Numbered from the stretch's first letter, positions 24,693 through 47,794 are shown. The stretch is DNA of 64,000 nucleotides from Escherichia coli (GCF_003334305.1 NZ_QOWS01000017.1); one strand, 5' to 3'. The notes: generated from the sequence alone by a model not told the origin. Numbers and translations: made by a program.

Positions 24693-24693
24693 A

Positions 24694-29873: not shown

Positions 29874-29951
29874 GGAGACTCATCCTCAGACCGGCAAGCC
29901 AGGAAAAGGTCGCAGGAAAAACCGGCTTACTGTTTGTTTTTTTATATTTTA

Positions 29952-31469: not shown

Positions 31470-31917
31470 TTTTCCCCAGCCCGGTGAGATTTACCGTTCT
31501 GCCGGTTTTCCCGATGTGGCCGTGGTCGGCATTCTGGAAGACGGTATTCCGTGGGAAATGCCGTACCGCTGCCCGGACATTGTCTGGAACCCGTACCGCC
31601 GTAAATTCAGTATCCTTGTGCGTATCCTCGCTGACGGACGCACCACAGACATCCCGCTGGGGCGTTTTCTGCGGGAATTTACCTGTGACCGTCCTGACCT
31701 GTTTAAACGCAGCCCCGTAAACCGGCATGCGGTACTGAAAGAAATGGCCGGAGACCCGGAATTACAGAAATGGCGGGAAAAATATCTGGATATTTACCCG
31801 CAGGCCCCTGTTCCGGTCAGCCGGGCGGCACCGGTGGCGCGGGAATGGCGGGAAATTCCCCGCACGGAGCCTGACCCGGAAATCACCCCGGATAACAGTT
31901 ACCGCAATTATCTGTAA
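31462..31917 (+). CDS. P4 orf151-like hypothetical protein
   Basis: 151-aa ORF in the position and of the size of P4 orf151, upstream of alpha. Confidence 0.5.
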   Translation: MFDFPQPGEIYRSAGFPDVAVVGILEDGIPWEMPYRCPDIVWNPYRRKFSILVRILADGRTTDIPLGRFLREFTCDRPDLFKRSPVNRHAVLKEMAGDPELQKWREKYLDIYPQAPVPVSRAAPVAREWREIPRTEPDPEITPDNSYRNYL

Positions 31918-32052
31918 TTAAAAAACGACACCCGAAAAATTAAATGTGCGTATTCGCGCAGGGATACGCACGTCTTCAGGAGACGCAGATATGCCTTATC
32001 AGTTAATGCAACCGGCACGGAATGCAGTCATCTGTCACAGGGAGGAAAGCAA

Positions 32053-32373
32053 ATGAAAACCCCCTTACCGCCCGTCTTACGCGCAGCCCTTTACCGTCGC
32101 GCTGTCGCCTGTGCCTGGCTGACCGTGTGCGAACGTCAGCACCGCTACCCGCATCTCACCCTTGAATCACTGGAGGCGGCCATCGCCGCTGAGCTGGAAG
32201 GCTTTTATCTGCGCCAGCACGGTGAGGAAAAAGGGCGTCAGATAGCCTGTGCCCTGCTGGAAGATTTAATGGAATCCGGCCCCCTGAAGGCCGCGCCGTC
32301 GCTGTCCTTTCTCGGGCTGGTTGTGATGGATGAACTCTGTGCCCGTCACATAAAAGCGCCGGTACTGCACTGA
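32053..32373 (+). CDS. P4 orf106-like hypothetical protein
   Basis: 106-aa ORF immediately upstream of alpha. Confidence 0.5.
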
Positions 32374-32387
32374 AGGAGAACAACACC

Positions 32388-34721
32388 ATGAAAATGAACG
32401 TAACCGCCACCGTCAGCCATGCACTCGGCCACTGGCCGCGTATTCTCCCGGCGCTGGGGATTCAGGTGCTGAAAAACCGTCATCAGCCCTGTCCGGTCTG
32501 TGGCGGGAGTGACCGCTTCCGTTTTGATGACAGGGAGGGGCGCGGCACCTGGTACTGCAATCAGTGTGGTGCCGGTGACGGCCTGAAACTGGTTGAAAAG
32601 GTGTTTGGTGTTTCCCCGTCCGACGCGGCCGCAAAGGTGGCTGCCGTGACCGGCAGCCTGCCACCGGCTGACCCGGCAGTGACGGCCGCCGCCGTTGCTG
32701 AAACAGACGCTGCCCGGAAGAACGCCGCCACACTGGCACAAACCCTGATGGCGAAAACCCGTACCGGAACCGGTAACGCCTACCTGACCCGCAAGGGCTT
32801 TCCCGGCCGGGAATGCCGGATGCTGACCGGCACACACAGAGCCGGTGGCGTGAGCTGGCGCGCCGGTGACCTTGTGGTGCCACTGTATGACGACAGCGGC
32901 GAACTGGTTAACCTTCAGTTAATCAGTGCTGACGGCCGTAAGCGCACCCTGAAAGGCGGACAGGTCAGGGGCACCTGTCACACCCTTGAAGGACAGAATC
33001 AGGCCGGAAAACGTCTGTGGATAGCGGAGGGATACGCGACCGCACTTACCGTACATCACCTGACCGGTGAAACGGTGATGGTGGCGCTTTCTTCCGTGAA
33101 CCTCCTTTCTCTGGCCAGCCTTGCCCGGCAGAAGCATCCGGCCTGTCAGATTGTCCTTGCCGCAGACCGTGACCTCAGCGGTGACGGCCAGAAAAAAGCC
33201 GCCGCAGCCGCAGATGCGTGTGAGGGCGTTGTTGCCCTGCCGCCGGTCTTCGGTGACTGGAATGATGCCTTCACGCAGTACGGCGGGGAGGCCACCCGTA
33301 AGGCCATTTACGATGCCATCCGGCCACCGGCTGAAAGCCCGTTCGACACCATGAGCGAAGCAGAGTTTTCCGCCATGAGTACCAGCGAAAAGGCCATGCG
33401 TATCTATGAGCATTACGGTGAGGCGCTCGCGGTCGATGCCAACGGCCAGCTTCTGTCTCGCTATGAAAATGGTGTCTGGAAGGTGCTGCCGCCACAGGAC
33501 TTTGCCCGGGATGTGGCCGGGCTGTTTCAGCGTCTGCGCGCGCCGTTCTCCTCCGGGAAGGTGGCCTCCGTGGTGGACACCCTGAAGCTGATTATTCCGC
33601 AGCAGGAAGCCCCCTCCCGCCGCCTGATTGGCTTTCGTAACGGTGTGCTCGACACACAGAACGGCACGTTCCACCCGCACAGTCCGTCACACTGGATGCG
33701 CACCCTGTGCGATGTGGATTTCACCCCGCCGGTGGACGGTGAAACGCTGGAGACCCACGCCCCCGCGTTCTGGCGCTGGCTTGACCGTGCCGCCGGTGGC
33801 CGTGCGGAAAAACGCGACGTGATTCTGGCCGCACTGTTTATGGTGCTGGCAAACCGCTATGACTGGCAGCTCTTTCTGGAGGTGACCGGTCCCGGCGGCA
33901 GCGGCAAAAGTATCATGGCCGAAATAGCCACCCTGCTGGCCGGGGAGGATAACGCCACGTCGGCCACCATTGAGACGCTGGAATCCCCGCGTGAACGTGC
34001 CGCGTTAACTGGCTTCTCACTGATACGCCTGCCGGACCAGGAAAAATGGAGCGGCGACGGTGCCGGACTCAAGGCCATCACCGGCGGCGATGCGGTGTCC
34101 GTTGACCCGAAATACCGGGATGCATACTCCACGCATATCCCGGCGGTGATTCTGGCCGTGAACAATAACCCGATGCGCTTCACCGACCGCAGCGGCGGCG
34201 TGTCACGCCGGCGGGTGATTATTCACTTCCCGGAACAGATAGCCCCGCAGGAGCGCGACCCGCAGCTTAAGGACAAAATCACCCGCGAGCTGGCGGTCAT
34301 CGTGCGTCACCTGATGCAGAAGTTCAGCGACCCGATGCTCGCCCGGTCACTGCTTCAGTCCCAGCAGAACTCAGACGAGGCGCTGAACATCAAACGGGAT
34401 GCCGACCCGACGTTTGATTTTATCGGCTATCTGGAAACCCTGCCGCAGACCAGCGGCATGTATATGGGGAACGCCAGTATCATCCCGCGTAATTACCGTA
34501 AATACCTCTATCACGCCTATCTGGCCTACATGGAGGCAAACGGCTACCGGAATGTACTCAGTCTGAAAATGTTCGGGCTGGGGCTGCCGGTGATGCTGAA
34601 GGAATACGGACTGAATTACGAGAAGCGCCATACCAAACAGGGGATACAGACCAACCTGACGCTGAAAGAGGAAAGCTACGGCGACTGGCTGCCAAAATGT
34701 GACGACCCTGCAACAACCTGA
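32388..34721 (+). CDS. P4 alpha primase-helicase (zinc-finger primase, P-loop helicase, C-terminal iteron-binding domain)
   Basis: 777-aa ORF; N-terminal CPVCGG…CNQCG zinc motif; Walker A GPGGSGKS in the central region. Confidence 0.9.
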   Translation: MKMNVTATVSHALGHWPRILPALGIQVLKNRHQPCPVCGGSDRFRFDDREGRGTWYCNQCGAGDGLKLVEKVFGVSPSDAAAKVAAVTGSLPPADPAVTAAAVAETDAARKNAATLAQTLMAKTRTGTGNAYLTRKGFPGRECRMLTGTHRAGGVSWRAGDLVVPLYDDSGELVNLQLISADGRKRTLKGGQVRGTCHTLEGQNQAGKRLWIAEGYATALTVHHLTGETVMVALSSVNLLSLASLARQKHPACQIVLAADRDLSGDGQKKAAAAADACEGVVALPPVFGDWNDAFTQYGGEATRKAIYDAIRPPAESPFDTMSEAEFSAMSTSEKAMRIYEHYGEALAVDANGQLLSRYENGVWKVLPPQDFARDVAGLFQRLRAPFSSGKVASVVDTLKLIIPQQEAPSRRLIGFRNGVLDTQNGTFHPHSPSHWMRTLCDVDFTPPVDGETLETHAPAFWRWLDRAAGGRAEKRDVILAALFMVLANRYDWQLFLEVTGPGGSGKSIMAEIATLLAGEDNATSATIETLESPRERAALTGFSLIRLPDQEKWSGDGAGLKAITGGDAVSVDPKYRDAYSTHIPAVILAVNNNPMRFTDRSGGVSRRRVIIHFPEQIAPQERDPQLKDKITRELAVIVRHLMQKFSDPMLARSLLQSQQNSDEALNIKRDADPTFDFIGYLETLPQTSGMYMGNASIIPRNYRKYLYHAYLAYMEANGYRNVLSLKMFGLGLPVMLKEYGLNYEKRHTKQGIQTNLTLKEESYGDWLPKCDDPATT

Positions 34722-34765
34722 CCCACCTGACCGGCATCTGCCGGTCTTTTTTTATCCCTGAATTC

Positions 34766-35070
34766 CCCGAAGGTGAACAATCCACTGTTCACCCTTCACC
34801 GTATATTCACCCGTTATCACACTGAAATTAAAAGAGAAAAACGAAAGGTGAACAGTGTGAACAATCAAATCAAAAAAAACTTTTTTCTTCCTGAGTGATT
34901 TCAGCACGGGAAATTAATCCCCTGCACAAGTCACACCGGCAGAATGCCGGAGGTGAAGAATCGAATGTTCACCCTTCACCCATTATTCACCACCTATCCA
35001 ACTGAAATAAAAGGAGAAAACAGAAAGGTGAACAGTGTGAACAGTTCTTTCGAAAAAAAATTTTTTTCTT
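34766..35070. repeat. P4 crr-like region: two tandem repeats of about 120-125 bp, each carrying TGTTCACC-type iterons
   Basis: Near-identical units beginning ccgaaggtgaacaatccactgttcaccc… and ccggaggtgaagaatcgaatgttcaccc…. Confidence 0.7.
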
Positions 35071-35185
35071 ATTTTTAATTGTGCGAAAAACAAGCGACAC
35101 ACGCAGTGTGTATAGATATGTGTATAGTTATATTTTTTGAATATTATAATGTATTACAAATCAATGTGTTAGCTTGTAATATTCA

Positions 35186-35205
35186 CTCCTATTATCGGCA
35201 CCATC
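35186..35205. repeat. att core, copy 2 (attR of the P4-like satellite and left boundary of element 2)
   Basis: Exact 20-bp copy of the thrW 3' end. Confidence 0.8.
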
Positions 35206-35808
35206 AAGAAAATCAATAACTTAGCTTAACTTCTCTAAGAAATTGTATCTTCTGTTATCACTTACAAACGCCTATACGTTGTTATGGGCTTTGGTAGTGT
35301 AACACGTATGGGCGAGTAGTTCCCAGGCTCAACCTCGTAACAAGTTCCTTTGAAGCTGGAAGACGTGCCACCGTCTCTAAACCTTCTACCAAAACTCTTA
35401 GCAAGATGTTCCACACCTGGCGCGGTGTCCAATGATGCTACACGTCGTGAGACGTTGCAGAGGATAAACAGGCTAAATGATGGGAAGAGTTTTAAGTGCA
35501 ATAGTGGATTAAAGCCCACCTCTTCAAAACCTAACTTGATCGGGAAAGAATCAAGCTCTAGCACGGTTTCGTCCACCGGAGTACAACGGGTGCCTGATAA
35601 GAGAAGAACTGCTAAGACTTCATAGCTTTTGTGAAAAAGCCCTTTTTAGTGGATACGCCTACGGCGCTTATTTTTTGGTATAACCATCAAAGGCGCTTTA
35701 TGGCTCCTATTGTCTTGAAAATGTATCTTTACTTGTATTGTGTTTTATGCGTAGTCTCCCTGTGTAGTATGTAACTTGTTAATTTTCATATGAATACAGA
35801 GGCACACG

Positions 35809-35967
35809 ATGAAAAACATTGCAGCTATCAAACGGAATAACCGCAAGATTCACGCTCGTAAGTTCCTGTCTACGCCAGAAGGAAAAGCCTGGCTAGAGCG
35901 TAAACAGAGAGAAAACGAAGAAAGAAAACTCCTTAGTGAGTTGAAATGGCTTAGAGAGGATTTCTGA
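35809..35967 (+). CDS. small basic hypothetical protein (52 aa), below the ORF-track size cutoff
   Basis: ATG preceded by an agagg RBS; translation MKNIAAIKRNNRKIHARKFL…. Confidence 0.3.
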   Translation: MKNIAAIKRNNRKIHARKFLSTPEGKAWLERKQRENEERKLLSELKWLREDF

Positions 35968-36310
35968 AAATCTCCAGAACGCAACAGGACGCATTCTAAC
36001 GCTGTTTTCATTACTCGGTATAGGGATTATAGGTGATGTGTGTTTAATGCGTCTGTGAGCTTGTTTTGTGCCTTATTTTGCATTTTCATAATGCAGGAGA
36101 GAACACGGAAAGCCTTAAAATTAATTATTGGGGTATTTAAGGCTATTTTTAGGTTATTTAAGGGTATTAAACTTGATTTAATTGATTGAAATATAAACAG
36201 ATAATTATGTATCTTATTGATTTATAAGGTTATTTTTAAATAAAGGTAAATAAAAAATAAATAGCCATAAATAGCTATAAATACATCTAAATACCTATAT
36301 CCCTTCCCTT

Positions 36311-36694
36311 ATGGCTAGATTGCGAGAAGTGCTTAACGCGATTTTCAGCGCCCCCCGATCTGGAAAATCCAGAATCCCCAAATATCAGCAAGGAATTTTC
36401 TTGCGTAATCAACATCGTTTTTACCTATTAAATCATTACACAGAAAGCCTTTCTGTAATGTCTCTCACTAAACTTTCACTAAACACGAGAATGATCGGTT
36501 TTATGTCGGATCAGATGCTAGAAATAGCACCACGTCTCACAAGGGCTGTAAGCGATGAAACCAGTGTTTATGCGGGTGCAGGTCAAAATATAGGCCAAAA
36601 TACATTTAACATAATAAACGTAATATGCACTAAGGAACACATAGAACGCCTTGAGTTGATGTATCAGGGGAAAAGTGGTGGATTTTTTACGTAG
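36311..36694 (+). CDS. hypothetical protein
   Basis: 127-aa ORF in an AT-rich region; no recognisable motif. Confidence 0.25.
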   Translation: MARLREVLNAIFSAPRSGKSRIPKYQQGIFLRNQHRFYLLNHYTESLSVMSLTKLSLNTRMIGFMSDQMLEIAPRLTRAVSDETSVYAGAGQNIGQNTFNIINVICTKEHIERLELMYQGKSGGFFT

Positions 36695-36720
36695 GAGCAC
36701 GAGAGGGCTTCTATTGACTT

Positions 36721-36999
36721 TTGTATGCTATGAAATATAATAGAAGGTTTTTTTATGTTGATAGTGATTGCACATTAAAGATTGAAAGCAAATTTAAACA
36801 TAAATTTTCAACACGTGAAAGAGAACTTGTTCGACAAATGATAAAACGTTTATTGAGCAACAATTTTGCAGTGATGCGCTATATGCCGAATTACACAAGG
36901 CTTTGCGAAAGTGATGTAAAAGTGAAGAAAGTAAGAATTGCAACTTTAAGCTACTTTTCATTGAATTTTTTAGTATGGAATTACACAGGAATAAGTTAG
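36721..36999 (+). CDS. hypothetical protein
   Basis: 92-aa ORF; no recognisable motif. Confidence 0.25.
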   Translation: MYAMKYNRRFFYVDSDCTLKIESKFKHKFSTRERELVRQMIKRLLSNNFAVMRYMPNYTRLCESDVKVKKVRIATLSYFSLNFLVWNYTGIS

Positions 37000-37085
37000 G
37001 GATATTCTATGATTTACACAGGGAATATAGGGGGATTATGGCACACACATAGAAAGACATTACACAAAGTGCTATGTGACAAATG

Positions 37086-37303
37086 GATGTAACGAGAGGT
37101 TACATTCAGCTATCTGAAATGCTCTCTGTAAGAAAGTTGGTAGTAACGATATGTTACATAGACTAATTATTGAATGTAACGATATTACACATCGGTAGTA
37201 ACGATACGTTACATCGACTAATTATTGAATGTAACGATATTACACATCGGTAGTAACGATACGTTACATCGACAGATGATTGGATGTAACGAAAGGTTAC
37301 ACA
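37086..37303. repeat. iteron/operator array: seven GTAACG-N4-5-GTTAC-type palindromic sites, including two perfect 57-bp tandem units
   Basis: Units ggtagtaacgata(c/t)gttacat…gaatgtaacgatattacacatc repeated head-to-tail; an AT-rich stretch follows at about 37310-37390. Confidence 0.7.
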
Positions 37304-38398
37304 ATAAGACTATATTATTTATAATACTAAATAAAACTATATTAGATTATTAATTAGATCATAATAATATTCTTTATATCTATATATATGATCTTTTGCC
37401 TTCCGGCGTTAGCTTCACTCCCTGGCAAGCAGCCTTACTCCGCTACCTTTCGGGCTACGTTGGCTGGCCCGTTCCGCTCACACCGAAAGCAAAGCGTTAC
37501 TTTCTTCGTGTAACTATCGTGGCGGTAACGCCCACGAAGAAATACTATTGCGCTGTGCGCAGAAGAGTAATCACCTAACCAATCATAGATTGCTTATGTG
37601 TTAACTCTCTCTACCTCTTAATTCCACTTCCTACATTTAATAACTCTGTTATTCTCTGTAGTTGTGTAATTACTCGAAGAGAGAGCGGCTAAAGCTCAAT
37701 TACACTCTGCTTTCCTCGTGTAAGTTCACTAAGCCTCAATACAATTTCACTTCCTACATTCTGTAGTCGTGTAATTGTTTTCGGTGGAAAAGCCAGAGGC
37801 GACACCGAAAGAGAATTCTGATCTTATTAATCTTATCTATCTTAGTTAATCTTCTTACTTTATCTACTTTATTATTAATAATAGCTTTATAAGCTCTGTG
37901 TAGCTCTCTGACGCAAGAAACAGCATTCAGGAAGGGAATCACCTTAGAAAAGGTGTTCTTTGCGTCATAATGTGTTTTATGAAGGATTCAGAGGTGTTTC
38001 ATAACAGGAATGTATAGAGGATATTTTAATTAATTAAAAATAAGGGGTCTAAATGCTTCTCTAACAACATTAAGCAGGGTAGGGAATGGAAACGCATTGC
38101 CTACATATAATAAGCTCACTACAGGGCTTTACAGAGCGTTTTATAAAGTGACTCTCTGTTTTATATTTACCATTACCTTTTCATATACCTAACAAATACA
38201 AAATAAGCCCCTTCAATAAGCCTCTGGCGAGCGAAACAGCCATTAGATAAGGGAATGTATTGCTTTTATCAAAATCTCGTCAGAATGCGATTGAGAGTGT
38301 TTTAGCGGATAATGAAGAATAGCACTACATAGAAGAGCACGAATTGTTAAGCAAAATCATAACATACTGAAAAAGATCAGTTTTTTTGTGAAAAGGTA

Positions 38399-38427
38399 TT
38401 GACAAACGTCTCTTTCTGTGCAATAAT
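38399..38427 (+). promoter_or_regulatory. sigma70-like promoter (TTGACA, 17-bp spacer, TGcAATAAT extended -10)
   Basis: Read directly from sequence; about 130 nt upstream of the 38555 ORF. Confidence 0.5.
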
Positions 38428-38554
38428 AGGTATTAGAGGGGACAGGAATAGATTCTTATCCTCTAAATAATTAAACCAATGCACCGCACTTTGAAGCCCA
38501 AGAGGCTTGCAAGGTGTTTTTTCTTTTAACCAAATCGAATAAGGAGGCTAATTA

Positions 38555-38731
38555 ATGAAATATTTCACTCCACAGGATGTAGTAGAAGCCTGGAAACGTG
38601 GTGAGATCAACCGCTTTAAAGTAAGGATGTATAGAAACACCGCTCGCCGTTGTGGTTATCCAGAGCGTGAAAAATGTTTTGACGATGCACTGAAAATTAT
38701 TGATGAACTGCGTAAAGCTGAGAAAGAATAA
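38555..38731 (+). CDS. small hypothetical protein (58 aa)
   Basis: ATG with a strong aaggagg RBS; first gene after the promoter. Confidence 0.45.
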   Translation: MKYFTPQDVVEAWKRGEINRFKVRMYRNTARRCGYPEREKCFDDALKIIDELRKAEKE

Positions 38732-38753
38732 TAGACAAGAGAAGGAGAAAACT

Positions 38754-38921
38754 ATGAGCGAAACTAAGAAACCAATTCCGCGCACTTACCTTCACGTTGA
38801 CCCTGAAATCTTCAAGGTTTTATTTGCTGAAGCCAAGAAAAGGCAAATTATGGTCAGTGATTTGATGTTAGAAATCATTACTGAAGCAGCAGAGAACATC
38901 AAACAAAAAAAGGGTAAGTGA
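38754..38921 (+). CDS. ribbon-helix-helix (CopG/Arc-like) DNA-binding protein
   Basis: 55 aa; …RTYLHVDPEIFKVLFAEAKKRQIMVSDLMLEII… fits a beta-strand then two helices (RHH). Confidence 0.5.
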   Translation: MSETKKPIPRTYLHVDPEIFKVLFAEAKKRQIMVSDLMLEIITEAAENIKQKKGK

Positions 38922-38974
38922 TCCTCATTCACTTTAGTAGCGCATTAAGCGTGATTTATAAGGAGATGATTCTA

Positions 38975-39718
38975 ATGTCTAAAATTAAATTGATTCGTGA
39001 AAAATACCAGTATGTTGATAAACAAACAGGAGAAATTAAAGACCGAACTTTGAATATACCGCATTACTTTTGTGAGATTGAATTTATCTACTCCTCAAGT
39101 GTTGATGGTGGAAAAGTTAAGTTTAGTGCAGAAATGCAAAAATTATATTGCTATGTTTCAGATTGGGAGAAATCAGGGGGGATATGTTTTGAAACACAAA
39201 CGAAGTTAAGTAAAGTTTGTGGCTGTAGCCGTAAGACAGTTAATGAACTGATTGGTCTTATGATTAAAATCGGTCTTTTAGAAGAGGTCGGAGAACGAAT
39301 TCCAAAACGTCCTTTAAAATTACGTGCGCTACCTCTCACAGATGCACATATTACTCCCCCAGGAGAATCATCACTCTCTGATCTTTCTGAGGCAGAAGAA
39401 GCACAGGAACAACCTAAAGGCCATAAACAGCCTTCTTTTGATGTTCTTGATGATTGGGATGCGCCTTTACCGTGGGAGACGGAAGAAACACCTGTTTCAT
39501 CAAGTGAAAAGGTAGCTAATGATAATGAGGAGGATGTATTAGAGAATTTTGCCTCTCTTATCATCCAGGAGAAACACACAAGAACAGGAGGAGCATCATT
39601 TATTGAGTTTGCAAATTCACTAGCTTATAGATACGGGCTAAAACGACCAAATGGTATTGAGGCATATTTTTCTAAGAATTACCCAAATGTATATGATGAA
39701 TTTGATATTCCCTTTTAA
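38975..39718 (+). CDS. helix-turn-helix protein with acidic C-terminal half (candidate replication initiator or regulator)
   Basis: ORF 38918-39718; start placed at the ATG after an aaggag RBS; winged-helix-like segment …TQTKLSKVCGCSRKTVNELIGLMIKIGLLEE…. Confidence 0.5.
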   Translation: MSKIKLIREKYQYVDKQTGEIKDRTLNIPHYFCEIEFIYSSSVDGGKVKFSAEMQKLYCYVSDWEKSGGICFETQTKLSKVCGCSRKTVNELIGLMIKIGLLEEVGERIPKRPLKLRALPLTDAHITPPGESSLSDLSEAEEAQEQPKGHKQPSFDVLDDWDAPLPWETEETPVSSSEKVANDNEEDVLENFASLIIQEKHTRTGGASFIEFANSLAYRYGLKRPNGIEAYFSKNYPNVYDEFDIPF

Positions 39719-40141
39719 TAAGGAGGACTATGATTCAATATTTAGTAAAAAAATCAAGTAGACAGAATTCAGTGTAATGACACAGGAAAACGCATCTACG
39801 AAACACTTGCTTACCTCTATAAAGGAAAGCCAACACCGCTAAAATATAGCGATGTGTTACATCGAGCAGGGTGCTCTGAAGCTGGTTTAAAATTCTGGCT
39901 GAAACAGCTATCAAATTTCGGTGTTATTGAAATGAAAGAGCTGTCTTTTTCTACATTCAATCTCAAAAGATTAGATAAAGAAATAGAATTCATCTATTCC
40001 ACTCTCTAAAATCTCTCTATGTAATTAAAATATAAAAGGAAAACATTATTATGATAGTAGCTATGTATTGGTTATTGTTCTTTCTCACGTTAGAAGCATA
40101 CTTTGGGGTGTTTTCCTTTAAAAGAAAAGGAAAAGTAAATA

Positions 40142-40558
40142 ATGGCAAAAAGAAAAAACAACGTTGTTAAGAAAATCGGTGATTCAGCTTCTCTTCTAAG
40201 TAAACCTAAACCTAAATCTATTCTAAGACGTAAAGACTTTAAAGAGCTAGTTACGCTCACCAAGCAAAATAGCGCCCCTGGCGAATGGAAAACAGAGATC
40301 ATAGAACATTCTCCCTCTGTGCCTTGTGGAGATGAATTTAACGCCTTGCAAGAAATCTTATCTTCAACACCTGGCGTATTCTGGAAACCTAGAAAAAGAA
40401 AAGAGTATATCGTTGATAGCTCTGATTTACGCAAATACCAGATTTTAGGATTTGAAGATTATAACCACTACGTCGGTTATCTCGCCACCAATGGCCTAAA
40501 TAATTTAGTTCCTGAATTCCAAATTTTAGATAATGCTGATCACTATGGAGACTTTTAA
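40142..40558 (+). CDS. hypothetical protein with basic N-terminus
   Basis: 138-aa ORF. Confidence 0.45.
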   Translation: MAKRKNNVVKKIGDSASLLSKPKPKSILRRKDFKELVTLTKQNSAPGEWKTEIIEHSPSVPCGDEFNALQEILSSTPGVFWKPRKRKEYIVDSSDLRKYQILGFEDYNHYVGYLATNGLNNLVPEFQILDNADHYGDF

Positions 40559-40559
40559 T

Positions 40560-40898
40560 ATGAACAAAAACACGTATGACACAATTTATTCACTAATTAA
40601 TTATTATGAGGATGATTACCTCCTGCCTTTAAACCGCGCTGAACTTGAAGCATACAAAGAAAACACGCCAGGGGCGCTAAATGAGGCGTTTAAACACTGG
40701 GATTTAGCTGTGAATGCCTTTGAGCACCTTTCTAAAAGAGTAGAGATGCTCTGTAAGCGTGAAAACGCATACCTGACAGCCGATCAGATATGGGAGCTAT
40801 CAAACTGGATAGAAGATATTGAATCTGATGTTCGCTATGTAGGGGATGGCCTGGTTGAATTAGCTCAACGCTTAGGCGCTACTATCACAGAAGAATAA
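40560..40898 (+). CDS. hypothetical protein
   Basis: 112 aa from an ATG overlapping the upstream stop (taATG). Confidence 0.45.
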   Translation: MNKNTYDTIYSLINYYEDDYLLPLNRAELEAYKENTPGALNEAFKHWDLAVNAFEHLSKRVEMLCKRENAYLTADQIWELSNWIEDIESDVRYVGDGLVELAQRLGATITEE

Positions 40899-40927
40899 AA
40901 AAAGCAACAAAAAAGTTGTAAAATATC

Positions 40928-40959
40928 TTGACATTCCATCTATTGTATGTTAATATAAT
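40928..40959 (+). promoter_or_regulatory. strong sigma70-like promoter (TTGACA, 17-bp spacer, TAATAT)
   Basis: Read directly from sequence; followed by about 290 nt of structured leader before the 41248 ORF. Confidence 0.5.
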
Positions 40960-41247
40960 TATATAGGGGTGATTATTTTTCCTTTATTGGTTCGATATTA
41001 AAAATTCTTCCTGTCATTAAAGGGGAGTAAAATCTCCGCTCCCCGCTTCTCCTCCTTAAGTAAATACTGTGTCATTATACCTCTTTTTTCCTTTGTTATG
41101 CATACATCTTGGAGTATGCATAACATAGGGTAATTACATAGGTATGAGTTAATAAAAGGCGGCTCTAAATGCTGCCTTTTATTTTGCCCGTTATGCAACT
41201 TAAAAGTTGTATTTCTTACTTTAAAAAAGGTAACAAGGTTTATATAA

Positions 41248-41460
41248 ATGTTGTTTTTAAACGATAAAGAGCAAATCATCAAGTATAAAGATGAAATGCT
41301 GAAAATTAATCCACAAATTACCGAAATGGTAGCTAAATACGCTGGGTGTTCTGTCGAGGAAGTAGAAAGATGTGTTGAAAAATATTTTTCTCCTTCTACT
41401 CCGTCTACACCTTCCCTTAATGAATTAATCAAATTAAAAGCTAAGGAGATTACTAAATGA
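41248..41460 (+). CDS. hypothetical small protein
   Basis: 70-aa ORF; stop overlaps the next start. Confidence 0.4.
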   Translation: MLFLNDKEQIIKYKDEMLKINPQITEMVAKYAGCSVEEVERCVEKYFSPSTPSTPSLNELIKLKAKEITK

Positions 41461-41819
41461 TTATTGATTTAGACACTCTGTTTCCAGTTAGAAAGACTTT
41501 CACAGATATTGTAAGTTATTGTACTGATCCGTTTGCCTCTGTAGAAAGCAAGGTTTTTGCTTCTCTTCCTGCTGATGTTGAGTGCGGCGACTTGATCACC
41601 AGTACTGGCGCTAAATATGAATCAGGAGATGATATCTATGTTGTTATGAGTGAATTTGTAACGGCTGGAGAAAACAAGCCTGTAGATGTGCTACGTAGTA
41701 ATGCTGGTCTTGTCTGCATCAAAGCTGATGCGCTGAATGCTGTAAGTGAAGCAGCAAAAACAGCATTAATTAAAAAAGGCTTCCAGCTTGAAGGGTTCCA
41801 TTCTGTTTTCACTTCTTAA
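41457..41819 (+). CDS. hypothetical protein upstream of the capsid-like gene (possible decoration or scaffold-like)
   Basis: 120-aa ORF, translationally coupled; functional guess from position only. Confidence 0.45.
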   Translation: MIIDLDTLFPVRKTFTDIVSYCTDPFASVESKVFASLPADVECGDLITSTGAKYESGDDIYVVMSEFVTAGENKPVDVLRSNAGLVCIKADALNAVSEAAKTALIKKGFQLEGFHSVFTS

Positions 41820-41837
41820 TAAAAGGAATAATAATAA

Positions 41838-42869
41838 ATGATTCTAGGTAATGATTACGTTGATTTAGCTCCGCTTTTCCAGGCACACAGCACTAGAAAC
41901 TTTCTGCTCTCTACCCTCGACTTCACTGATCCGGTGGGCGTTAGTTCTCATAAAGTAGCTGTTTCTCAGCTTGTCGAAAGCAACGAATCTCTGTTCAACA
42001 AAGAAACCTCTCGTTTCTCTTCTGAACACAATGTTACTAAGCGTGAACAAGGTAAAGAATGGCTGATTGAAATCCCGTATTTTCTTCGTGAAGATGTGAT
42101 CCGTCCTTCTGATGTTCAAGGCAAGCGTAAGCCTGGCACTGATTTTCAGGAAACACTCACTGATATCTATGCGGAATATATCGCTAAACACCACGTAGCG
42201 TATCAGCGTACAAAAGAGAGCGTGTTGGCTGCATCTCTGTTTAGCGGTAAAACTTACACGCCTAAAACTGATGATGTTCTTATCGAGTGGGGCAAGCTGT
42301 TTAACGTGGCACCTATGAAAGCCACCTTGAACGCTTCCAGCACTGACACAATGACCGTTTTCAAGCAATTTGACCAGCTTGCTACGGATATGATTGCTAA
42401 GGCACAAAACCAGGCTGCAACCATTGAGCGTGTTGTTGTGTTCTGTAAACCTGCGGCATTCAACGCTATTCGTTACAGTGTTGGTATGGTCAATGCTTTC
42501 CAATATGCAAGCCCTGTAGACGATGCCAACGTGGTGTTTAATGTGCGTTCCCTGCTACCAGGTGTAACTACTTTCACCATTCCAGGAACTAACATTGACC
42601 TGATCAAAGTGACTGATCCGCTACACCTTGCACATATGGCTTCTGATGCGGTTGCTGTGCCTAAATTCGCTAAGGGGGCAGGTGTTTACCAATCTATCTA
42701 TGGGGCAGCTTCCAGCACCTTTGAACTGATCAATGCCGCTCCTGCTGAGGTGTATAGCTATAGCTATGAATCTTCTTCTCGTGGTGATGCTGTTAACGTT
42801 GTTACAGAGAATAGCCAGATGGTGGTAAACCACGGCGTTGGTTTCTCCGTTCAAATCACTGTTAAATAA
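41838..42869 (+). CDS. phage major capsid protein candidate (lambda gpE-like family)
   Basis: 343-aa ORF (lambda E is about 341 aa); several segments, including the C-terminal …GFSVQITVK, resemble my recollection of lambda E; not verified by search. Confidence 0.5.
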   Translation: MILGNDYVDLAPLFQAHSTRNFLLSTLDFTDPVGVSSHKVAVSQLVESNESLFNKETSRFSSEHNVTKREQGKEWLIEIPYFLREDVIRPSDVQGKRKPGTDFQETLTDIYAEYIAKHHVAYQRTKESVLAASLFSGKTYTPKTDDVLIEWGKLFNVAPMKATLNASSTDTMTVFKQFDQLATDMIAKAQNQAATIERVVVFCKPAAFNAIRYSVGMVNAFQYASPVDDANVVFNVRSLLPGVTTFTIPGTNIDLIKVTDPLHLAHMASDAVAVPKFAKGAGVYQSIYGAASSTFELINAAPAEVYSYSYESSSRGDAVNVVTENSQMVVNHGVGFSVQITVK

Positions 42870-42955
42870 TATTTTAACGTGTAATAGAGGCGTGGCGTGA
42901 ATAACACGCTTCGCCTTTTTTTATTTATTTTTAAATTTTGAGAGGTGATTAAAAT

Positions 42956-43159
42956 ATGGAAGTGATTCTGAAATCAAAAAATGGTGTACACGTTTATTTA
43001 GATGCTAATGATTCAAGAGGCTTGTTAAATCTGAAATATCTATGTTCTCTCTTGGATGTTCCATATGAAGGCGTAAAAGCCCGAATGTTCAGATTAAACG
43101 AGAGTATTGATCAAGCTCTACACCATTTCTTAAGCAAAGAAGGTGGTAAAAATGATTAA
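42956..43159 (+). CDS. hypothetical small protein
   Basis: 67-aa ORF. Confidence 0.35.
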   Translation: MEVILKSKNGVHVYLDANDSRGLLNLKYLCSLLDVPYEGVKARMFRLNESIDQALHHFLSKEGGKND

Positions 43160-43173
43160 TAAGGGGATTTTAA

Positions 43174-45012
43174 ATGTTAGAAATTAACACTTCTAAAATT
43201 AAGAACACAGTAACATTTAGTGTAGATAAAGACAGCTTGAAAAAAGCGAAAGACTCTATTACAGGCTTAAAGGAATTCACAGAAAACATCAAGCCAGCTA
43301 AATTAAGGTTTGATAGTGTCACTAAAGGCTATAAGAAAGCACAAAGCGAAGTAGACAAGATTGCTCAACAGAAAGCTAAAACAGAAAAGCAGAATCAAAG
43401 AGCACAAGCTGCCGCAGCAAGAGCACAGGCAAGGCAACAGACACAAATAGCAGCACGTAAAGAGAAAGCAGAATTAAAGCTCCTCGATGTGTCAAGCTCT
43501 ATCAGTGCAATGCACCGCCTCTCTGTAGCGGAACAATACAAAGCTATTGCACAGGCTAGAGAGATAGCAAAACAATATGAGCAAGGGGCTATCTCGCTTG
43601 CACGTATGAATAGTCAGATGAAACGCCTACAACAGCAACAACGTAAGATTAATGGCAACAGAAAAGCTCAATTAGCCCCCGTTAAGGGAGGAGGATCAGG
43701 GAATTCCGCCACGATGGGTGCTCTGTTATTTGGAGGCGCTACAGCGGCTGCTGGCGTGATGGCTGTTAGTAAAGCGTCGGAGTTTGTTAGTAACAGTTTC
43801 GCTAACGCAGAGACACAAGGTGAGCTAATTCAACGTGCAAGGCTTGGCGGTGTAGACGTTAACCAGATGTACAACATTACAGAATGGGCCTATAGAAACG
43901 GCGTTGACTCTATGATGGGTGATCAAGGGGCTAGGAAATACCTGGATCAGATGAAAGATGTTAGGGAACGTGCCGCAAAATCCTATAGTGAAGCTGAATA
44001 TGTAGTCGATAAAAAAACTGGTAAAGGCGGCGAATGGAAAGGCGGTGATAACGCTATTAATGAACTTCTAAACATCGGTGTTATTAACAAGAGCGACCTT
44101 AAAAAATTTGCTGATAATCCAGCCGGATTAATTTCTAAGGCTGTTAATGGAATGATGAAAAAAGGGTTTTCAGACTCCCAAATTGGACAACGTTTAGAAG
44201 ACCTGGGTGATGATTTGATGCTTACATCAAAATATTGGCAACGTTCCGTTAAAGATGTACAAACAAGCATCGAGCAGCAAAAAGCCTCTGGAAAATGGCT
44301 AACAGAAACACAGCAAGATTCTATTGTTAAATTCAGAGAACTAAACAGACAGCTTTCACAGCTTTCTGATGCAAGACAAGTAGCATTTGTAGACGGCTTT
44401 ATGAAATCTCTCGATCCAAAAGTAACGGAAGAGTTTATGAAAAACCTTTCTAATCTCACTCCGTATTTTACAAAGCTGGGAGAAGCTACAGGAAGTCTCT
44501 TTGAAGCTATTATGAAGATTGTAAACTGGTTTAATCGTAATGATGATAAGACAGATGCTATTCAGAAAAATTTAGGTGATGCACCGCCATTAAGCAATGA
44601 AGGAATGAAACAGAATCTTTCTAATCTCGTTCCTGATCAATATAAAGGCGCTGGCACCGGAACAACTAAGCCAGATAACAGCAATTCCCTGTTTAACACT
44701 ATTAAGGGATTGCTTTTCGATGATAAGTCTTCTTCTGTGTCAGATGTAAAAATGTCAGTCAGCGAAGCACCGATAACCAATCTCAAACAGGGCGCTTTAA
44801 ATAATCTTGCAATGACAACTCCGGCTTATAATTTATCTCCTGTGTTTAATCTGAATCCTACATTTGAAGTGGTAACAGAGGTTCCTCTTACTATTAATTC
44901 TGACACATCAAGATTAAGCGATTATGTGGATTTTACAGCGAGATCAAGTCGGGATAGCTTCTTGAAATCATTAACATTAACCAGCTTATCAGGACAATCT
45001 AACGGCGGGTAA
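43174..45012 (+). CDS. large coiled-coil protein with a Gly/Ala-rich hydrophobic segment (tape-measure-, pilot- or ejection-like)
   Basis: 612 aa; K/Q/A-rich predicted coiled coil in the N-terminal 170 aa; GGGSGNSATMGALLFGGATAAAGVMAV segment. Confidence 0.55.
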   Translation: MLEINTSKIKNTVTFSVDKDSLKKAKDSITGLKEFTENIKPAKLRFDSVTKGYKKAQSEVDKIAQQKAKTEKQNQRAQAAAARAQARQQTQIAARKEKAELKLLDVSSSISAMHRLSVAEQYKAIAQAREIAKQYEQGAISLARMNSQMKRLQQQQRKINGNRKAQLAPVKGGGSGNSATMGALLFGGATAAAGVMAVSKASEFVSNSFANAETQGELIQRARLGGVDVNQMYNITEWAYRNGVDSMMGDQGARKYLDQMKDVRERAAKSYSEAEYVVDKKTGKGGEWKGGDNAINELLNIGVINKSDLKKFADNPAGLISKAVNGMMKKGFSDSQIGQRLEDLGDDLMLTSKYWQRSVKDVQTSIEQQKASGKWLTETQQDSIVKFRELNRQLSQLSDARQVAFVDGFMKSLDPKVTEEFMKNLSNLTPYFTKLGEATGSLFEAIMKIVNWFNRNDDKTDAIQKNLGDAPPLSNEGMKQNLSNLVPDQYKGAGTGTTKPDNSNSLFNTIKGLLFDDKSSSVSDVKMSVSEAPITNLKQGALNNLAMTTPAYNLSPVFNLNPTFEVVTEVPLTINSDTSRLSDYVDFTARSSRDSFLKSLTLTSLSGQSNGG

Positions 45013-45046
45013 TTCCCGCCATAACATTACAAGGAAAATTATTATT

Positions 45047-45760
45047 ATGGCGACCGCCGGGATTTTAACCATACGTGCAGCAAATACTCCAGAACAACAC
45101 GTTCAGGCTGTTTACAAAGCAGAACAAGATATAAATTCTACAAAAAACGAAAATAGCAAAGCTAATAAAACAAAAGGAGAGAACGGATTTGCTATTGTTA
45201 CCAGTGGCTTGGCATCTTCTGGCAATGACGTTTATGAAAATTATATGGCCCTGGCCTTTGACAGTGTAGACGATGTGAACGTGAGACGTTCGGCAGATGT
45301 CACAAGCTACCCCGTAGAAAATGGTGCTACTGTGTCTGATCACGTTCAAATTAAAAACAATAAGTTTTCTCTTAAAGGAAGGATCACTGAAACACCGATT
45401 AAAAGCGATCCTGGCTTGTTAAAGAGTGCAGGGGTGAACGGGAACAGAAGATCATTAGCCATAGACTACTTGAATCAGATTATGGACAGTAGACAGCCTT
45501 TTCTTCTTGTTACAGAAAATAAAACTTTTGAGAACGTTGTTTTAACAGGCATCGAATACACAGAAGAGGCAAGCGAATCCCTGGTATTTGATCTTAGCTT
45601 TGAGCAGATCAGATTAGTTTCTTATGGCACTGTATCCACTATTGCACTTAAAACACAACCATCTAAGAACATCGGGGCGAATATGAAAAAACGTGTTAAC
45701 ACTGAAAAATCAAGTAGTGAAGGTGAAGACACTATTACTCCTGCCTTTAAGCAGAAATAG
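45047..45760 (+). CDS. hypothetical protein (possible virion structural protein)
   Basis: 237-aa ORF. Confidence 0.5.
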   Translation: MATAGILTIRAANTPEQHVQAVYKAEQDINSTKNENSKANKTKGENGFAIVTSGLASSGNDVYENYMALAFDSVDDVNVRRSADVTSYPVENGATVSDHVQIKNNKFSLKGRITETPIKSDPGLLKSAGVNGNRRSLAIDYLNQIMDSRQPFLLVTENKTFENVVLTGIEYTEEASESLVFDLSFEQIRLVSYGTVSTIALKTQPSKNIGANMKKRVNTEKSSSEGEDTITPAFKQK

Positions 45761-45801
45761 CCGTAAACGCCTCTAAAACGCTCTGTAACGATGTAATTAT
45801 A

Positions 45802-45838
45802 AAAGAGGCTGCCAATCTATGTTGAAGCCTCTTTATTG
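45802..45838. terminator. bidirectional intrinsic terminator between the structural-like genes and the convergent integrase
   Basis: Stem aaagaggct / agcctcttt with flanking A/T runs. Confidence 0.55.
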
Positions 45839-45841
45839 TGT

Positions 45842-47206
45842 TTATGGCGTTGTTTTACGCCTTAAATTTGATTTTTTATTGATTGATAAGCCTTTCTCTA
45901 TTTCAGGGTAGCGTAGAAGCTCAATATAGTTTTTAAGCTCTACTGGAGAAGCTGCATTCTTGCTATATGTGCGGAATGTCTCTGTATTGCCGCGTGTATG
46001 GCCCAGGAGAAGGGCGATCCTGTCTTCTGGAATTTGATTTCGATCAAGAAGCTGTGCTACTCCGTGTCTCAGAGAATGAAACACTTTCCTTTCTGTTCCC
46101 TTTTCCCCTAAAGCCTTTCGTTTAGCTCTTGTAAATCTCTGCGTGTGCCACGTGGAACGTTTACCATCAGCACGCTCTGTAATGCTGGCGTGATAGAACA
46201 AAAAGCCATTATGAGGCTTTTCACGCAGCGACAACACCAACGGAGTGATAAGGCTATGTACAGGCACAACACGTGCCGCAGCTTTCGTTTTTCCCTGTGT
46301 GATTTCAAAACACAGCACACCTTCGATCTCTTTCACATCGTCTATTGTGAGACTTGCTATCTCATTGATCCGCATACCTGTATATAAACCGATAAGACAC
46401 AAAGCCATCATTTCTTTGTTTTCTGCTGAATTACCGGAAAATACTTGCAACACCTGCAATAGCTCTTTGTTAGAAAATGCCTCGTAGCTCTCTCTACTTT
46501 GTGCCACATCAAGCCTATGCCCTCGCCAGGGGGAGAGCGCCCTTTCTGGCGCATCGTGGTAACGTGATGAAGCTAACTCCCATAGCTGGGCTATTGGGCT
46601 GATATAATTTGCAATTGATTGTTGTGAAAGAGTTTTTTGCATGTGTTCTATCCAGCCTGTAACAGTGGTGCGGCTCACATCTTGCAATGCAATATCAGGC
46701 TTTTTACGGTAGGAGAGAAACATCTCTACCGCTTTTCTTGCCTTAGCTAAAGTGGCTGGCTTCTTCTTCGTGCTGTTAATTGTCAGGTAGATTTCAAGAA
46801 TTTTAAGCAATGACGGACACGAAGACGCTGTATCTTGCATTCTGGTAGCTGTTTTGGCGTATTTAGCCTTACTGCGTAACAGCTCCAGCGTGTTCTCTAT
46901 TGTGCTGTTTACAGGGGCGACACTCTCCCGTAGGCAATGGTATTCATCTGCAATCTGATCACGCTTTCTACGTGCAACACGAAGATTATTTGTGTGTAGA
47001 CTTCTGACAAACGTCCTTTTTCCTTCAAAAAAGGGCTGCATATACACAGGCAGCGTGATCCTTAAATAGTAGTTACCGTAAGAATCACAGATTAAGTATT
47101 GGTTAGGCTTGTATCTCATAAAATCTCCGGCTAAAGTGTCGGAGCGTTTGTAATGTGAAAATTGATTGTAACGCATAGAAAATGATAATTTTTCTATAAG
47201 ATTCAA
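45842..47206 (-). CDS. tyrosine integrase (intF-position integrase)
   Basis: 454-aa ORF; catalytic signature …GMRINE…HSLRHG…GHTRGNTETFRTYSK; sits beside the degenerate att copy. Confidence 0.85.
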   Translation of the reverse strand: MNLIEKLSFSMRYNQFSHYKRSDTLAGDFMRYKPNQYLICDSYGNYYLRITLPVYMQPFFEGKRTFVRSLHTNNLRVARRKRDQIADEYHCLRESVAPVNSTIENTLELLRSKAKYAKTATRMQDTASSCPSLLKILEIYLTINSTKKKPATLAKARKAVEMFLSYRKKPDIALQDVSRTTVTGWIEHMQKTLSQQSIANYISPIAQLWELASSRYHDAPERALSPWRGHRLDVAQSRESYEAFSNKELLQVLQVFSGNSAENKEMMALCLIGLYTGMRINEIASLTIDDVKEIEGVLCFEITQGKTKAAARVVPVHSLITPLVLSLREKPHNGFLFYHASITERADGKRSTWHTQRFTRAKRKALGEKGTERKVFHSLRHGVAQLLDRNQIPEDRIALLLGHTRGNTETFRTYSKNAASPVELKNYIELLRYPEIEKGLSINKKSNLRRKTTP

Positions 47207-47260
47207 TCAATTAGTAATGGTCGTAGGTGATGGCATTAACACGAGATTAATCGAGTGTTT

Positions 47261-47280
47261 TACTCCTATTATCGCACCAT
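47261..47280. repeat. att core, copy 3 (degenerate, 19/20): actcctattatcgcaccatt
   Basis: One-base deletion relative to copies 1 and 2. Confidence 0.6.
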
Positions 47281-47405: not shown

Positions 47406-47740
47406 TTAAACCAATTGCTGCCGCCATTCTTTGACGTAGTCAATCAGGGCGCGGAGCTTTGGTGCAATATTGCGACGCTGTGGGAAATACAGATAGAAGC
47501 CCGGAAATTGTGGAAGAAAGTCATCAAGCAGCGATACAAGCTTACCGCTTTCAATATATGGCCTGAAAGTTTCCTGAGTGGCAATTGTTATTCCTCCGCC
47601 GGCAAGAGCCAGCCTCAACATCAGACGCAGATCATTAGTCGTAATCTGCGGTTCAATCGCAAGGTCGAAAGTTCTCCCGTTTTCTTCAAATGGCCAGCGA
47701 TAAGGCGCAACCTCCGGGGACTGACGCCAGCCGATACACT
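47406..47740 (-). pseudogene. yagP: LysR-family regulator fragment (substrate-binding domain only)
   Basis: C-terminal LysR-like sequence without an HTH domain; corresponds to the K-12 yagP fragment. Confidence 0.5.
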
Positions 47741-47794
47741 TATGGGTATTTCCCCCGGAGGCGAGAAAGCGCTCTCCACGCCCGGCCGCAAGGA

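Follow-up and report, generated by a model that had tools for sequence, protein, structure and literature searches.

P4 resizes the capsid of P2 via Sid and uses the P2 cos site, and cf-PICIs, whose genes include a portal, take only tails from temperate helpers. The PLE of Vibrio cholerae is a satellite of the virulent myovirus ICP1. The described elements closest to the locus analysed here form a family of islands that was proposed from sequence as putative satellites, with mention of "closely related organisms" (Barth, Dunham and Seed 2023, PMC10448857). Like the present island, members of this family carry genes for a RepA with a modular N-terminal DNA-binding domain, a decoration protein, a capsid protein, a tape measure, a baseplate component and an integrase; they likewise lack terminase, protease, alpA, head-tail adaptor and Pri-Rep genes, and they lie beside a tRNA or in a lysR-type gene. 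The island is a member of this family, and nothing in it contradicts the published description. We consider it probable that its structural genes are half of a 12-kb phage satellite that depends on virulent phi92-like myoviruses of the Stephanstirmvirinae, most likely Justusliebigvirus, as helpers.

An Integrative Island at thrW

We analysed a stretch of 64,000 nucleotides of Escherichia coli DNA (GCF_003334305.1, NZ_QOWS01000017.1; the window). The structural genes make up the right-hand half of an integrative element of 12 kb (~35206–47280; table 1), which is integrated at tRNA-Thr thrW (tRNA at 23283–23358) in tandem with a P4-like satellite on its left; we refer to the neighbour as island 1 and to the element under study as island 2. 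The attL copy doubles as the right end of island 1. The PGAP call for the integrase spans 45842–47119, and the longest ORF extends to 47206. A second insertion site is known: in the relative L014 the same island lies inside srsR, flanked by a perfect 52-bp direct repeat (target duplication). The att flanks and the location at a tRNA or lysR-type gene (thrW here, srsR in L014) agree with those of the satellites of Barth et al. A sequence-only reading of the same DNA had given no island boundaries, no link to phi92-like phages and no prior publication.

The module is present in 542 of the 5,426 complete E. coli genomes (~10%). Related islands also occur in Klebsiella, Enterobacter and Sodalis genomes, where the compact architecture, gene set and gene order are kept. 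The island ORFs are intact, and their dN/dS values of 0.05–0.28 indicate purifying selection.

Between them, scans with PHROG, Pfam, NCBIfam and PADLOC took in, on both strands, all island ORFs of 60 aa or more together with nine additional ORFs, mostly below that length, in the left part. These scans yielded only the integrase, the Rep-like protein and the structural genes. No terminase, portal, protease, sheath or tube gene was found in the island, in agreement with the earlier statement that packaging machinery is lacking; alpA, head-tail adaptors and Pri-Rep were not found in the same scans, nor were neck, baseplate or lysis genes in the 12 kb. Island 2 gave no defence system in PADLOC and, with Rfam, a single chance match below threshold; promoter and terminator scans gave no useful enrichment.

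Table 1. Features of the island, with positions counted in the window
Feature	Position	Strand	Description
attL	35185..35205		21-nt copy of the tRNA-Thr thrW 3' end, ACTCCTATTATCGGCACCATC; exact repeat of 23340-23360
80-bp bipartite element	36309..36388	+	Box TGCTTAACG, fixed spacing, box AAATATC; common to phi92-like phages
Iteron array, putative origin	37084..37303	+	Five copies of GTAACGANNNGTTACA; AT-rich stretch beyond, to ~37400
55-aa protein	38754..38921	+	Upstream of Rep; identical copies in phages Inny and Muut
Rep-like initiator	38975..39718	+	N-terminal HTH_36 DNA-binding domain (Pfam); C-terminal domain ending DIPF
Two conserved genes without assigned function	40142..40898	+	138 aa; ~112 aa at 40560-40898
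70-aa protein	41248..41460	+	Opens structural block; position kept across family; dN/dS 0.16
120-aa capsid decoration-like protein	41457..41819	+	Assigned from fold matches and gene position; dN/dS 0.05-0.21
343-aa major capsid protein	41838..42869	+	Lambda-E family, HK97 fold; dN/dS ~0.14
67-aa protein	42956..43159	+	Directly before tape measure gene, like phi92 gp133; synteny only
612-aa tape measure protein	43174..45012	+	Homolog of phi92 gp134
237-aa tail tube initiator, Dit-like	45047..45760	+	Homolog of phi92 gp135
Tyrosine integrase	45842..47206	-	PHROG 1 integrase, E 1e-33; PGAP annotation
attR	47262..47280		Degenerate att core copy, ACTCCTATTATCGCACCAT

Structural Genes

The structural ORFs in 41457–45760 were confirmed, all on the + strand, and their order in the island parallels that of gp123-gp124 and gp133-gp134-gp135 in phi92. 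The 343-aa protein, which the sequence-only reading had likened to lambda-E capsid proteins, matches the full-length Pfam model Phage_cap_E (PF03864; residues 24–342, model positions 19–329 of 329, E = 4e-14) and PHROG 29 (major head protein). Its AlphaFold model (pLDDT 73, pTM 0.74) matches in Foldseek the HK97-fold capsid proteins of ICP1, phiTE, Bas63, Sf14, Chi and lambda gpE (E = 1e-15 to 1e-6, TM ~0.55–0.7), and the predicted structure thus bears out the HK97 fold expected for it. The protein is only ~20% identical to the phi92 capsid protein, so its compatibility with the portal and scaffold of the helper is an assumption.

For the model of the 120-aa protein (pLDDT 73), the nine best Foldseek matches are small accessory chains of ~122–148 residues in capsid entries of Bas63, Sf14 and phiTE, and YSD1 follows at rank 11. 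We take these chains to be decoration proteins, which agrees with the label "Dec" used by Barth et al. The gene precedes the capsid gene, as the decoration gene gp123 does in phi92. Sequence similarity between the 120-aa protein and gp123 is absent, and a tblastn search with the protein against all phage records gave no match. Similarly, the 67-aa protein has no detectable similarity to gp133. NCBIfam has no match for any of the structural proteins.

The tail proteins are homologs of phi92 proteins. The 612-aa protein matches PHROG 16051 (tail length tape measure protein, E = 4e-54), phi92 gp134 in BLASTP (E = 2e-33) and the solved gp134 chain (PDB 21vq_V, E = 2e-38). Residues 1–66 are 56% identical to gp134, with the first 28 nearly identical, and the 5' 87 nt of the gene are 86% identical to phi92 at the DNA level. 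The glycine-rich hydrophobic stretch (approximately residues 165–200) aligns with its equivalent in gp134. Whole-length homology, a coiled-coil N-terminal part and the Gly-rich segment together characterize a tape measure of the gp134 type, one of the roles (tape-measure, pilot or ejection protein) that the earlier reading had connected with these features; Pfam has nothing for this protein, and no assignment to a non-phage family was obtained. The 237-aa protein, for which only a homology search had been proposed, turned out to be a tube initiator, with matches to Pfam Dit_like (PF21821, E = 7e-29) and to PDB chains 21vq_N (phi92 gp135, E = 3e-78), 9cuy_K (tube initiator) and 7yfz (Pam3 gp17). 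It is 61% identical to phi92 gp135 and 58–61% to its counterparts in Justusliebigvirus and Phapecoctavirus, the phages that also match the tape measure best. In both genes, patches at the 5' end show 86–92% DNA identity to phi92, and in both proteins the N-terminus is near-identical to that of the phage and the remainder has diverged. The tube initiator is absent from the Klebsiella and Enterobacter relatives. A lambda-like or temperate helper was also considered and rejected: lambdoid phages gave no match to the coat, the tape measure or the tube initiator.

Replication Module and Phage Nucleases

The iteron motif, which recurs in 55-bp repeats, has five matches where 0.08 are expected by chance. 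It is confined to islands that share the N-terminal domain of Rep, being present in L013 and missing from L014 and others. The Rep-like protein has weak PHROG matches to replication initiators, and its N- and C-terminal domains recombine independently among island variants. The tip of the C-terminal domain is SSB-like. The 138-aa and ~112-aa genes that follow have syntenic counterparts of about the same length in the islands of Klebsiella, Enterobacter and Sodalis; neither protein has a match in PHROGs, NCBIfam or PADLOC, and the 138-aa protein has none in Pfam.

In the island, 626 bp are 97.6% identical to DNA of phage Inny, and for the gene of the 55-aa protein the nucleotide identity is 97–99% to both Inny and Muut. 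A nuclease of the T5orf172 type (PHROG 681, E = 4e-18; Pfam MUG113/T5orf172) is common to Inny gp184 and Muut gp154. The N-terminal domain of Inny gp184 is 88% identical in amino acids to residues 1–145 of the island Rep, that is, the domain copied by Inny is that of the present island; the N-terminal domain of Muut gp154 differs and matches the Rep of an Enterobacter island (66%). These Rep-domain-bearing nucleases have already been published (Barth et al. 2023, PMC10448857), and the mirroring of the RepA N-terminal domain at the N-terminus of a phage T5orf172 nuclease, as described for that family, holds for the present island.

An 80-bp Element Common to the Island and Phages

Positions 36314–36359 of the window (46 bp) are 93.5% identical to positions 318–363 of phi92, a match that is found in ~50 phage genomes. 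In phi92 this stretch spans the point annotated as the inner end of the left terminal repeat (1–343), and the boundary, as annotated in the record, falls within an invariant box of the element. Both boxes and their spacing are invariant, with no indels, in six islands of four lineages and in three phage lineages. A profile of the element also detects, in nhmmer, islands outside its training set, and finds no copy in the Sodalis island. We suggest from these comparisons that the element is a candidate packaging or terminus-processing signal. It could alternatively be a regulatory site copied from the early region of the helper: the element lies upstream of the first gene in phi92, and in most islands upstream of a recombinase gene on the opposite strand. 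No convincing second island site resembling the outer end of the phi92 terminal repeat was found, and the record of phage phiWec188, examined for the repeat boundary, does not start at the physical end.

The exact pattern of the element occurs 18 times in 2.9 million viral contigs (IMG/VR). Four of these contigs are 97–153 kb long, and at least 9 of the other 14 carry island genes within the sequence examined. The matches are prophage-type contigs and phage genomes; no free 12-kb contig is among them, so the scan is uninformative on packaging.

Proposed Mechanism and Alternatives

The 80-bp element and the phage counter-nucleases are indirect indications of packaging and transfer of the island that would depend on a helper; literature searches returned no experiment on induction, packaging or transfer for this island family. 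We propose that infection by a phi92-like phage would lead to excision and to Rep-driven replication from the iterons. The island may then form its own decorated capsids, probably small, with the portal, the scaffold or protease, and the terminase coming from the helper. If the helper terminase recognizes the boundary of its own terminal repeat in the 80-bp copy, the island DNA would be packaged. With their helper-like N-termini, the tape measure and tube initiator would dock onto the baseplate hub and chaperones of the helper; there they may nucleate the tails of island particles, divert helper tails or spoil them, or do both. Some helper phages would counter with Odn-like nucleases directed at the island origin. 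The more specific proposition, that the satellite takes part of the virion of a virulent myovirus, supplying its own shell (coat and decoration protein) and tail core (the tape measure, alone or together with the tube initiator) and being packaged via the copy of the terminal-repeat boundary, is put forward tentatively, as somewhat short of an even chance. If true, this would be the first satellite known to encode helper-matched tail-core proteins and the first reported mimic of a processing site of direct terminal repeats. The sequence-only reading had offered remodelling of a helper capsid as one explanation; dependence on a helper survives from it in the form of a satellite-like mobile island, and simple remodelling does not, since the island encodes its own coat, a decoration protein and tail-core proteins of the helper type.

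The tape measure and tube initiator, with phage-matched N-termini and divergent remainders as docking proteins would have, could also belong to a defence island that is not transferred, in which these proteins and the coat co-assemble with the phi92-like phage, spoil its virions and protect the bacterial population. Interference with tail assembly by mobile elements has a precedent (PMC11364771), and the island evidently harms phages, because phages carry nucleases aimed at it. However, the integrase, att sites, Rep and iterons, the terminal-repeat copy, and a complete pair of coat and decoration proteins, all of them conserved and under purifying selection, would be superfluous for pure interference, and more than one insertion site is known. 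Interference and transfer are moreover compatible, as PLE does both. We therefore regard defence without transfer as unlikely.

The second earlier explanation was a relic retained under selection. A further candidate is a decaying prophage remnant, with structural genes left over from a once complete prophage of phi92-like or lambda-like type that persist by chance or serve the host in some unrelated way. Most virion genes are indeed missing, and the island lies at thrW, where E. coli K-12 carries the defective prophage CP4-6. Neither the decay of structural genes nor the immobility of a defective prophage was found, however: the same compact gene set and order recur in distant genera, the genes are intact with dN/dS well below 1, the Rep/ori module is autonomous and its Rep domain is copied by phage nucleases, and insertion elsewhere has left perfect target repeats. 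Furthermore, records of phi92-like phages describe them as virulent, and no integrase lies in the parts that were examined. A decaying remnant is thus very improbable, and the relic reading is contradicted on several of these counts. A helper-free minimal virus or gene-transfer-agent-like particle, suggested by the coat, decoration protein and replication module, is hardly credible for 12 kb in which the scans found no terminase, portal, protease, neck, tube, sheath, baseplate or lysis genes.

Comparison with Known Satellites

A satellite of phi92-like phages remains our preferred reading of the island. The module, found in about one tenth of complete E. coli genomes, could alter the host range of these phages as well as their yield, and carry DNA from strain to strain; phi92-like helper phages are being gathered for phage therapy. 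Concrete experimental targets are offered by the 80-bp element, the tail proteins matched to the helper and the module of Rep and iterons, and work on the element would inform how terminal-repeat phages of the phi92 group recognize their genome ends.

Several features of the island were not found in the account of the family to which it belongs (PMC10448857): the copy of the terminal-repeat boundary, tail proteins homologous to gp134 and gp135 whose N-termini match those of the helper, an iteron motif that varies together with the Rep domain, the SSB-like tip of Rep, and the dN/dS values. P4-like satellites resemble the island in being integrative, ~11–12 kb long and found in E. coli, with one directly on the left at the same tRNA. 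However, P4 has no coat or tail genes, and psu, delta, sid, epsilon and primase-helicase genes are absent from island 2 and belong to the neighbouring island 1. The cf-PICIs, like the island, encode their own HK97-fold coat protein, but they have terminase, prohead serine protease, head-tail adaptor, alpA and Pri-Rep genes (Barth et al., PMC10448857), of which set of head genes the island has only the coat, and the island carries two tail genes instead. The island does not show the defining features of cf-PICIs, a distinction that Barth et al. also draw.

PLE resembles the island in being a chromosomal island with a RepA_N-type initiator and a modular origin, and in being targeted by a phage-encoded chimeric T5orf172 nuclease, Odn. 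The coat protein of its helper ICP1 is the closest match to the predicted fold of the island coat. Unlike the island, PLE has no coat gene, and the ICP1 coat is reported to be resized by the scaffold TcaP (PMC10002752); host and helper lineages also differ. If behaviour follows sequence, the island family would be an E. coli counterpart of Vibrio PLE-ICP1, with a virulent phage as helper and the most tractable of bacteria as host.

Two Tandem Islands at thrW

The 3' end of the tRNA-Thr gene thrW recurs as an exact copy at 35185-35205 and as a degenerate copy at 47262-47280, and the locus therefore holds two islands in tandem (see table). A complete Gabija defence system lies within the low-GC cargo region of island 1, and island 2, which includes the structural genes, is itself low in G+C (~35-43% across most of its length). 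To the right of island 2 follow a LysR-type gene fragment and then paoDCBA. The fragment, which is yagP-like and lacks its N-terminus, is located at 47406-47745, directly right of attR; because relatives of the island integrate into lysR-type genes, it may be the trace of an earlier insertion.

Features of the thrW locus and of related islands and phages
Feature	Sequence	Coordinates	Remarks
tRNA-Thr thrW	window	23283-23358	E. coli chromosome
Island 1	window	23361-35205	P4-like satellite, unrelated to island 2; PGAP: Icd-like protein, derepression protein, primase-helicase
Island 1 integrase	window	23523-24692	
GajA	window	24694-26397	Gabija of island 1
GajB	window	26394-28016	Gabija of island 1
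Island 1 primase-helicase	window	32388-34721	
Island 2	window	~35206-47280	includes 41457-45760
Recombinase	L013 (E. coli island)	2983-3534	183 aa; annotated 'recombinase family protein'; reads like serine recombinase
Recombinase	L006 (Klebsiella or Enterobacter island)	2968-3585	Phage_integrase-type, 186-205 aa (range with L009)
Recombinase	L009 (Klebsiella or Enterobacter island)	4166-4726	Phage_integrase-type, 186-205 aa (range with L006)
gp184	L004 (phage Inny)	3233-4336	chimeric nuclease
gp154	L015 (phage Muut)	2732-3730	chimeric nuclease

Structural Proteins of the Island

The open reading frames at 41457-45760 are real and as described in the sequence-only reading, whose protein assignments were right. 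The 343-aa protein is a lambda-E-type capsid protein, matching Pfam Phage_cap_E over the whole of its length (E = 4e-14), and its AlphaFold model (pLDDT 73, pTM 0.74) resembles HK97-fold coat proteins, with matches to those of ICP1, phiTE, Bas63, Sf14, Chi and lambda. The 612-aa protein, in which features of tape-measure, pilot or ejection proteins had been seen, matches a tape-measure PHROG (E = 4e-54) and is a tape measure protein, and the 237-aa protein is Dit-like. A gene for a 120-aa protein precedes the coat gene; the nine best matches of its model are only small accessory chains in capsid entries of Bas63, Sf14 and phiTE, with YSD1 at rank 11. We read these chains as decoration proteins, and because the best fold matches are accessory capsid chains, the 120-aa protein is read as decoration-like, in agreement with the label 'Dec' given to the equivalent gene by Barth et al. 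2023 (PMC10448857). The absence of packaging machinery noted earlier also held: no terminase, portal, protease, neck, sheath or tube gene was found among all island ORFs of at least 60 aa on both strands, in scans that also took in nine further ORFs, mostly shorter, in the left part of the island.

Kinship with phi92-Like Phages

In tblastn searches of 50,697 phage records, the tape measure and the 237-aa protein group with the Stephanstirmvirinae, virulent myoviruses of ~147 kb such as phi92. The 237-aa protein shares 61% identity with phi92 gp135, whose relatives with solved structures are named tube initiators. The tape measure aligns lengthwise with phi92 gp134 (26% identity, E = 2e-33); its first 28 residues are almost identical to those of gp134, and the first 87 nt of its gene show 86% DNA identity with phi92. 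This N-terminus is nearer to that of phi92 than to its counterparts in the remaining island lineages, and Justusliebigvirus phages give it the best matches. Between the coat protein and phi92 gp124 the homology is distant (20% identity, E = 1e-7). Moreover, the island order of decoration and coat, and of small gene, tape measure and tube initiator, parallels gp123-gp124 and gp133-gp134-gp135, and the neck, sheath, tube and chaperone genes between these phi92 blocks are absent from the island.

A blastn search of the left half of the island against phages revealed two shared regions, 36314-36359 and 38742-39367. The first shows 93.5% identity with phi92 318-363 and occurs at the same site in ~50 related genomes. 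In the phi92 record, positions 1-343 carry the annotation of left direct terminal repeat, and the annotated inner boundary therefore lies within this match, in the TGCTTAACGCGA box of a bipartite 80-bp element (36309-36388). In an alignment of six islands (from two E. coli lineages, Enterobacter and K. pneumoniae) and three phage lineages, the element has two invariant boxes, TG(C/T)TTAACG and AAATATC, at constant spacing within diverged flanks, and a profile built from part of these sequences recovers it in islands omitted from the profile. A scan of 2.9 million viral contigs gave only 18 exact matches to its pattern; four of the contigs concerned measure 97-153 kb, and at least 9 of the remaining 14 carry island genes in the stretch examined. 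Genomes of Stephanstirmvirinae terminate in direct terminal repeats (PMC12695924). We read the element as a candidate signal for packaging or end processing that the island copied from its helper. It may instead act in regulation, for example by imitating an early promoter of the helper.

A 127-aa ORF at 36311-36694 starts within the element; it has no match in any library searched, is not called by PGAP and is probably not a gene. Separately, the 22 bp at 38032-38053 are 95% identical to non-coding phi92 sequence close to the right terminus of the phage genome (~147334-147355), which may reflect a shared regulatory site or chance.

Rep and Its Iterons

Five copies of GTAACGANNNGTTACA lie at 37089-37301, where 0.08 are expected by chance, and an AT-rich stretch follows this iteron array. 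The motif is also present in L013, whose Rep DNA-binding domain is the same as that of the island, and is absent from the related island L014 and the other islands, whose Rep domains differ. Between island variants, the two halves of Rep (N- and C-terminal) have been exchanged independently by recombination. At its C-terminus (39695-39718) Rep ends in ...YDEFDIPF; in its homologs from other islands the last residues are DIPF, SIPF, TIPF or DCPF. E. coli SSB has the C-terminal tip DDDIPF; by this resemblance, the Rep tip may recruit SSB-binding replication proteins.

The second shared region, 38742-39367, is 97.6% identical to phage Inny. Inny gp184 consists of the N-terminal HTH of the island Rep (88% amino acid identity), a second HTH and a T5orf172/GIY-YIG-type nuclease. 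In Muut gp154 the same nuclease is joined to another N-terminal domain, one that shares 66% identity with Rep in an Enterobacter island. Inny and Muut are closely related phages, and the N-terminal domain of each nuclease is a copy taken from Rep of a separate island variant. A 55-aa island gene is also present in both phages, within a DNA segment of 97.6-99% identity. No matching Odn-like nuclease is encoded by the Justusliebigvirus phages phi92, alia and VEcB. These chimeric nucleases with copied Rep domains have already been published (Barth et al. 2023).

Spread, Selection and Mobility

The sequence-only reading had allowed for a relic. Of 5426 complete E. coli genomes, 542 carry the module, in two lineages; APEC O1 is one strain with the island. 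Coat homologs of 341-348 aa were detected in Klebsiella, Enterobacter, Citrobacter, Cronobacter, Dryocola, Sodalis and Serratia. Gene order is shared by the inspected Klebsiella, Enterobacter and Sodalis islands, with a conserved core of 70-aa gene, decoration, coat, ~62-aa gene and tape measure, whereas the tube initiator is found only in E. coli and Sodalis. Pairwise dN/dS is 0.05-0.28 for pairs with unsaturated dS. In another strain, the L014 island, 90% identical to the one in the window, lies within the LysR-type gene srsR rather than thrW, between perfect direct repeats of 52 bp (1636-1687 and 13486-13537). Spread, synteny, dN/dS and the srsR insertion argue against a decaying relic. Towards their left end, the other lineages have an additional gene for a small recombinase, encoded on the opposite strand; the island in the window lacks it, and no remnant was detected by tblastn with the L013 protein.

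A Probable Satellite of Virulent Phages

The most likely reading, drawn from its observed anatomy, homologies, shared DNA, selection and mobility, makes the island a satellite of virulent phages related to phi92. Phage infection would induce the island and Rep would drive its replication; the island's own decorated shell would assemble on helper portal and scaffold, and helper terminase would package the island via the 80-bp element. The island tape measure and tube initiator would either nucleate tails on the baseplates of the helper or disrupt the helper's own tails.

The island is a member of an already published family known from sequence. Starting from the nucleases of Inny, Muut and Mt1B1_P17, Barth, Dunham and Seed (2023; PMC10448857) found 224 'putative satellites' in E. 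coli and relatives, which encode decoration, capsid, tape measure, baseplate-component and integrase genes, sit at tRNA or in a lysR-type gene and have modular RepA_N domains. Their text describes the elements from sequence, and the words 'terminal repeat' and packaging of the elements are absent from it; literature searches found no follow-up on these satellites. New here are the helper lineage, as indicated directly by the island's structural proteins, the N-termini matched to the helper, the apparent copy of the helper terminal-repeat boundary and the co-variation of iterons and Rep. Unlike cf-PICIs, the Barth satellites lack the cf-PICI head genes (PMC10448857). The Odn nuclease of ICP1 serves as the model, and its architecture is documented in PMC8263062. 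Although the family is known, the new features of the island are directly testable in a tractable E. coli system, an analogue of PLE and ICP1.
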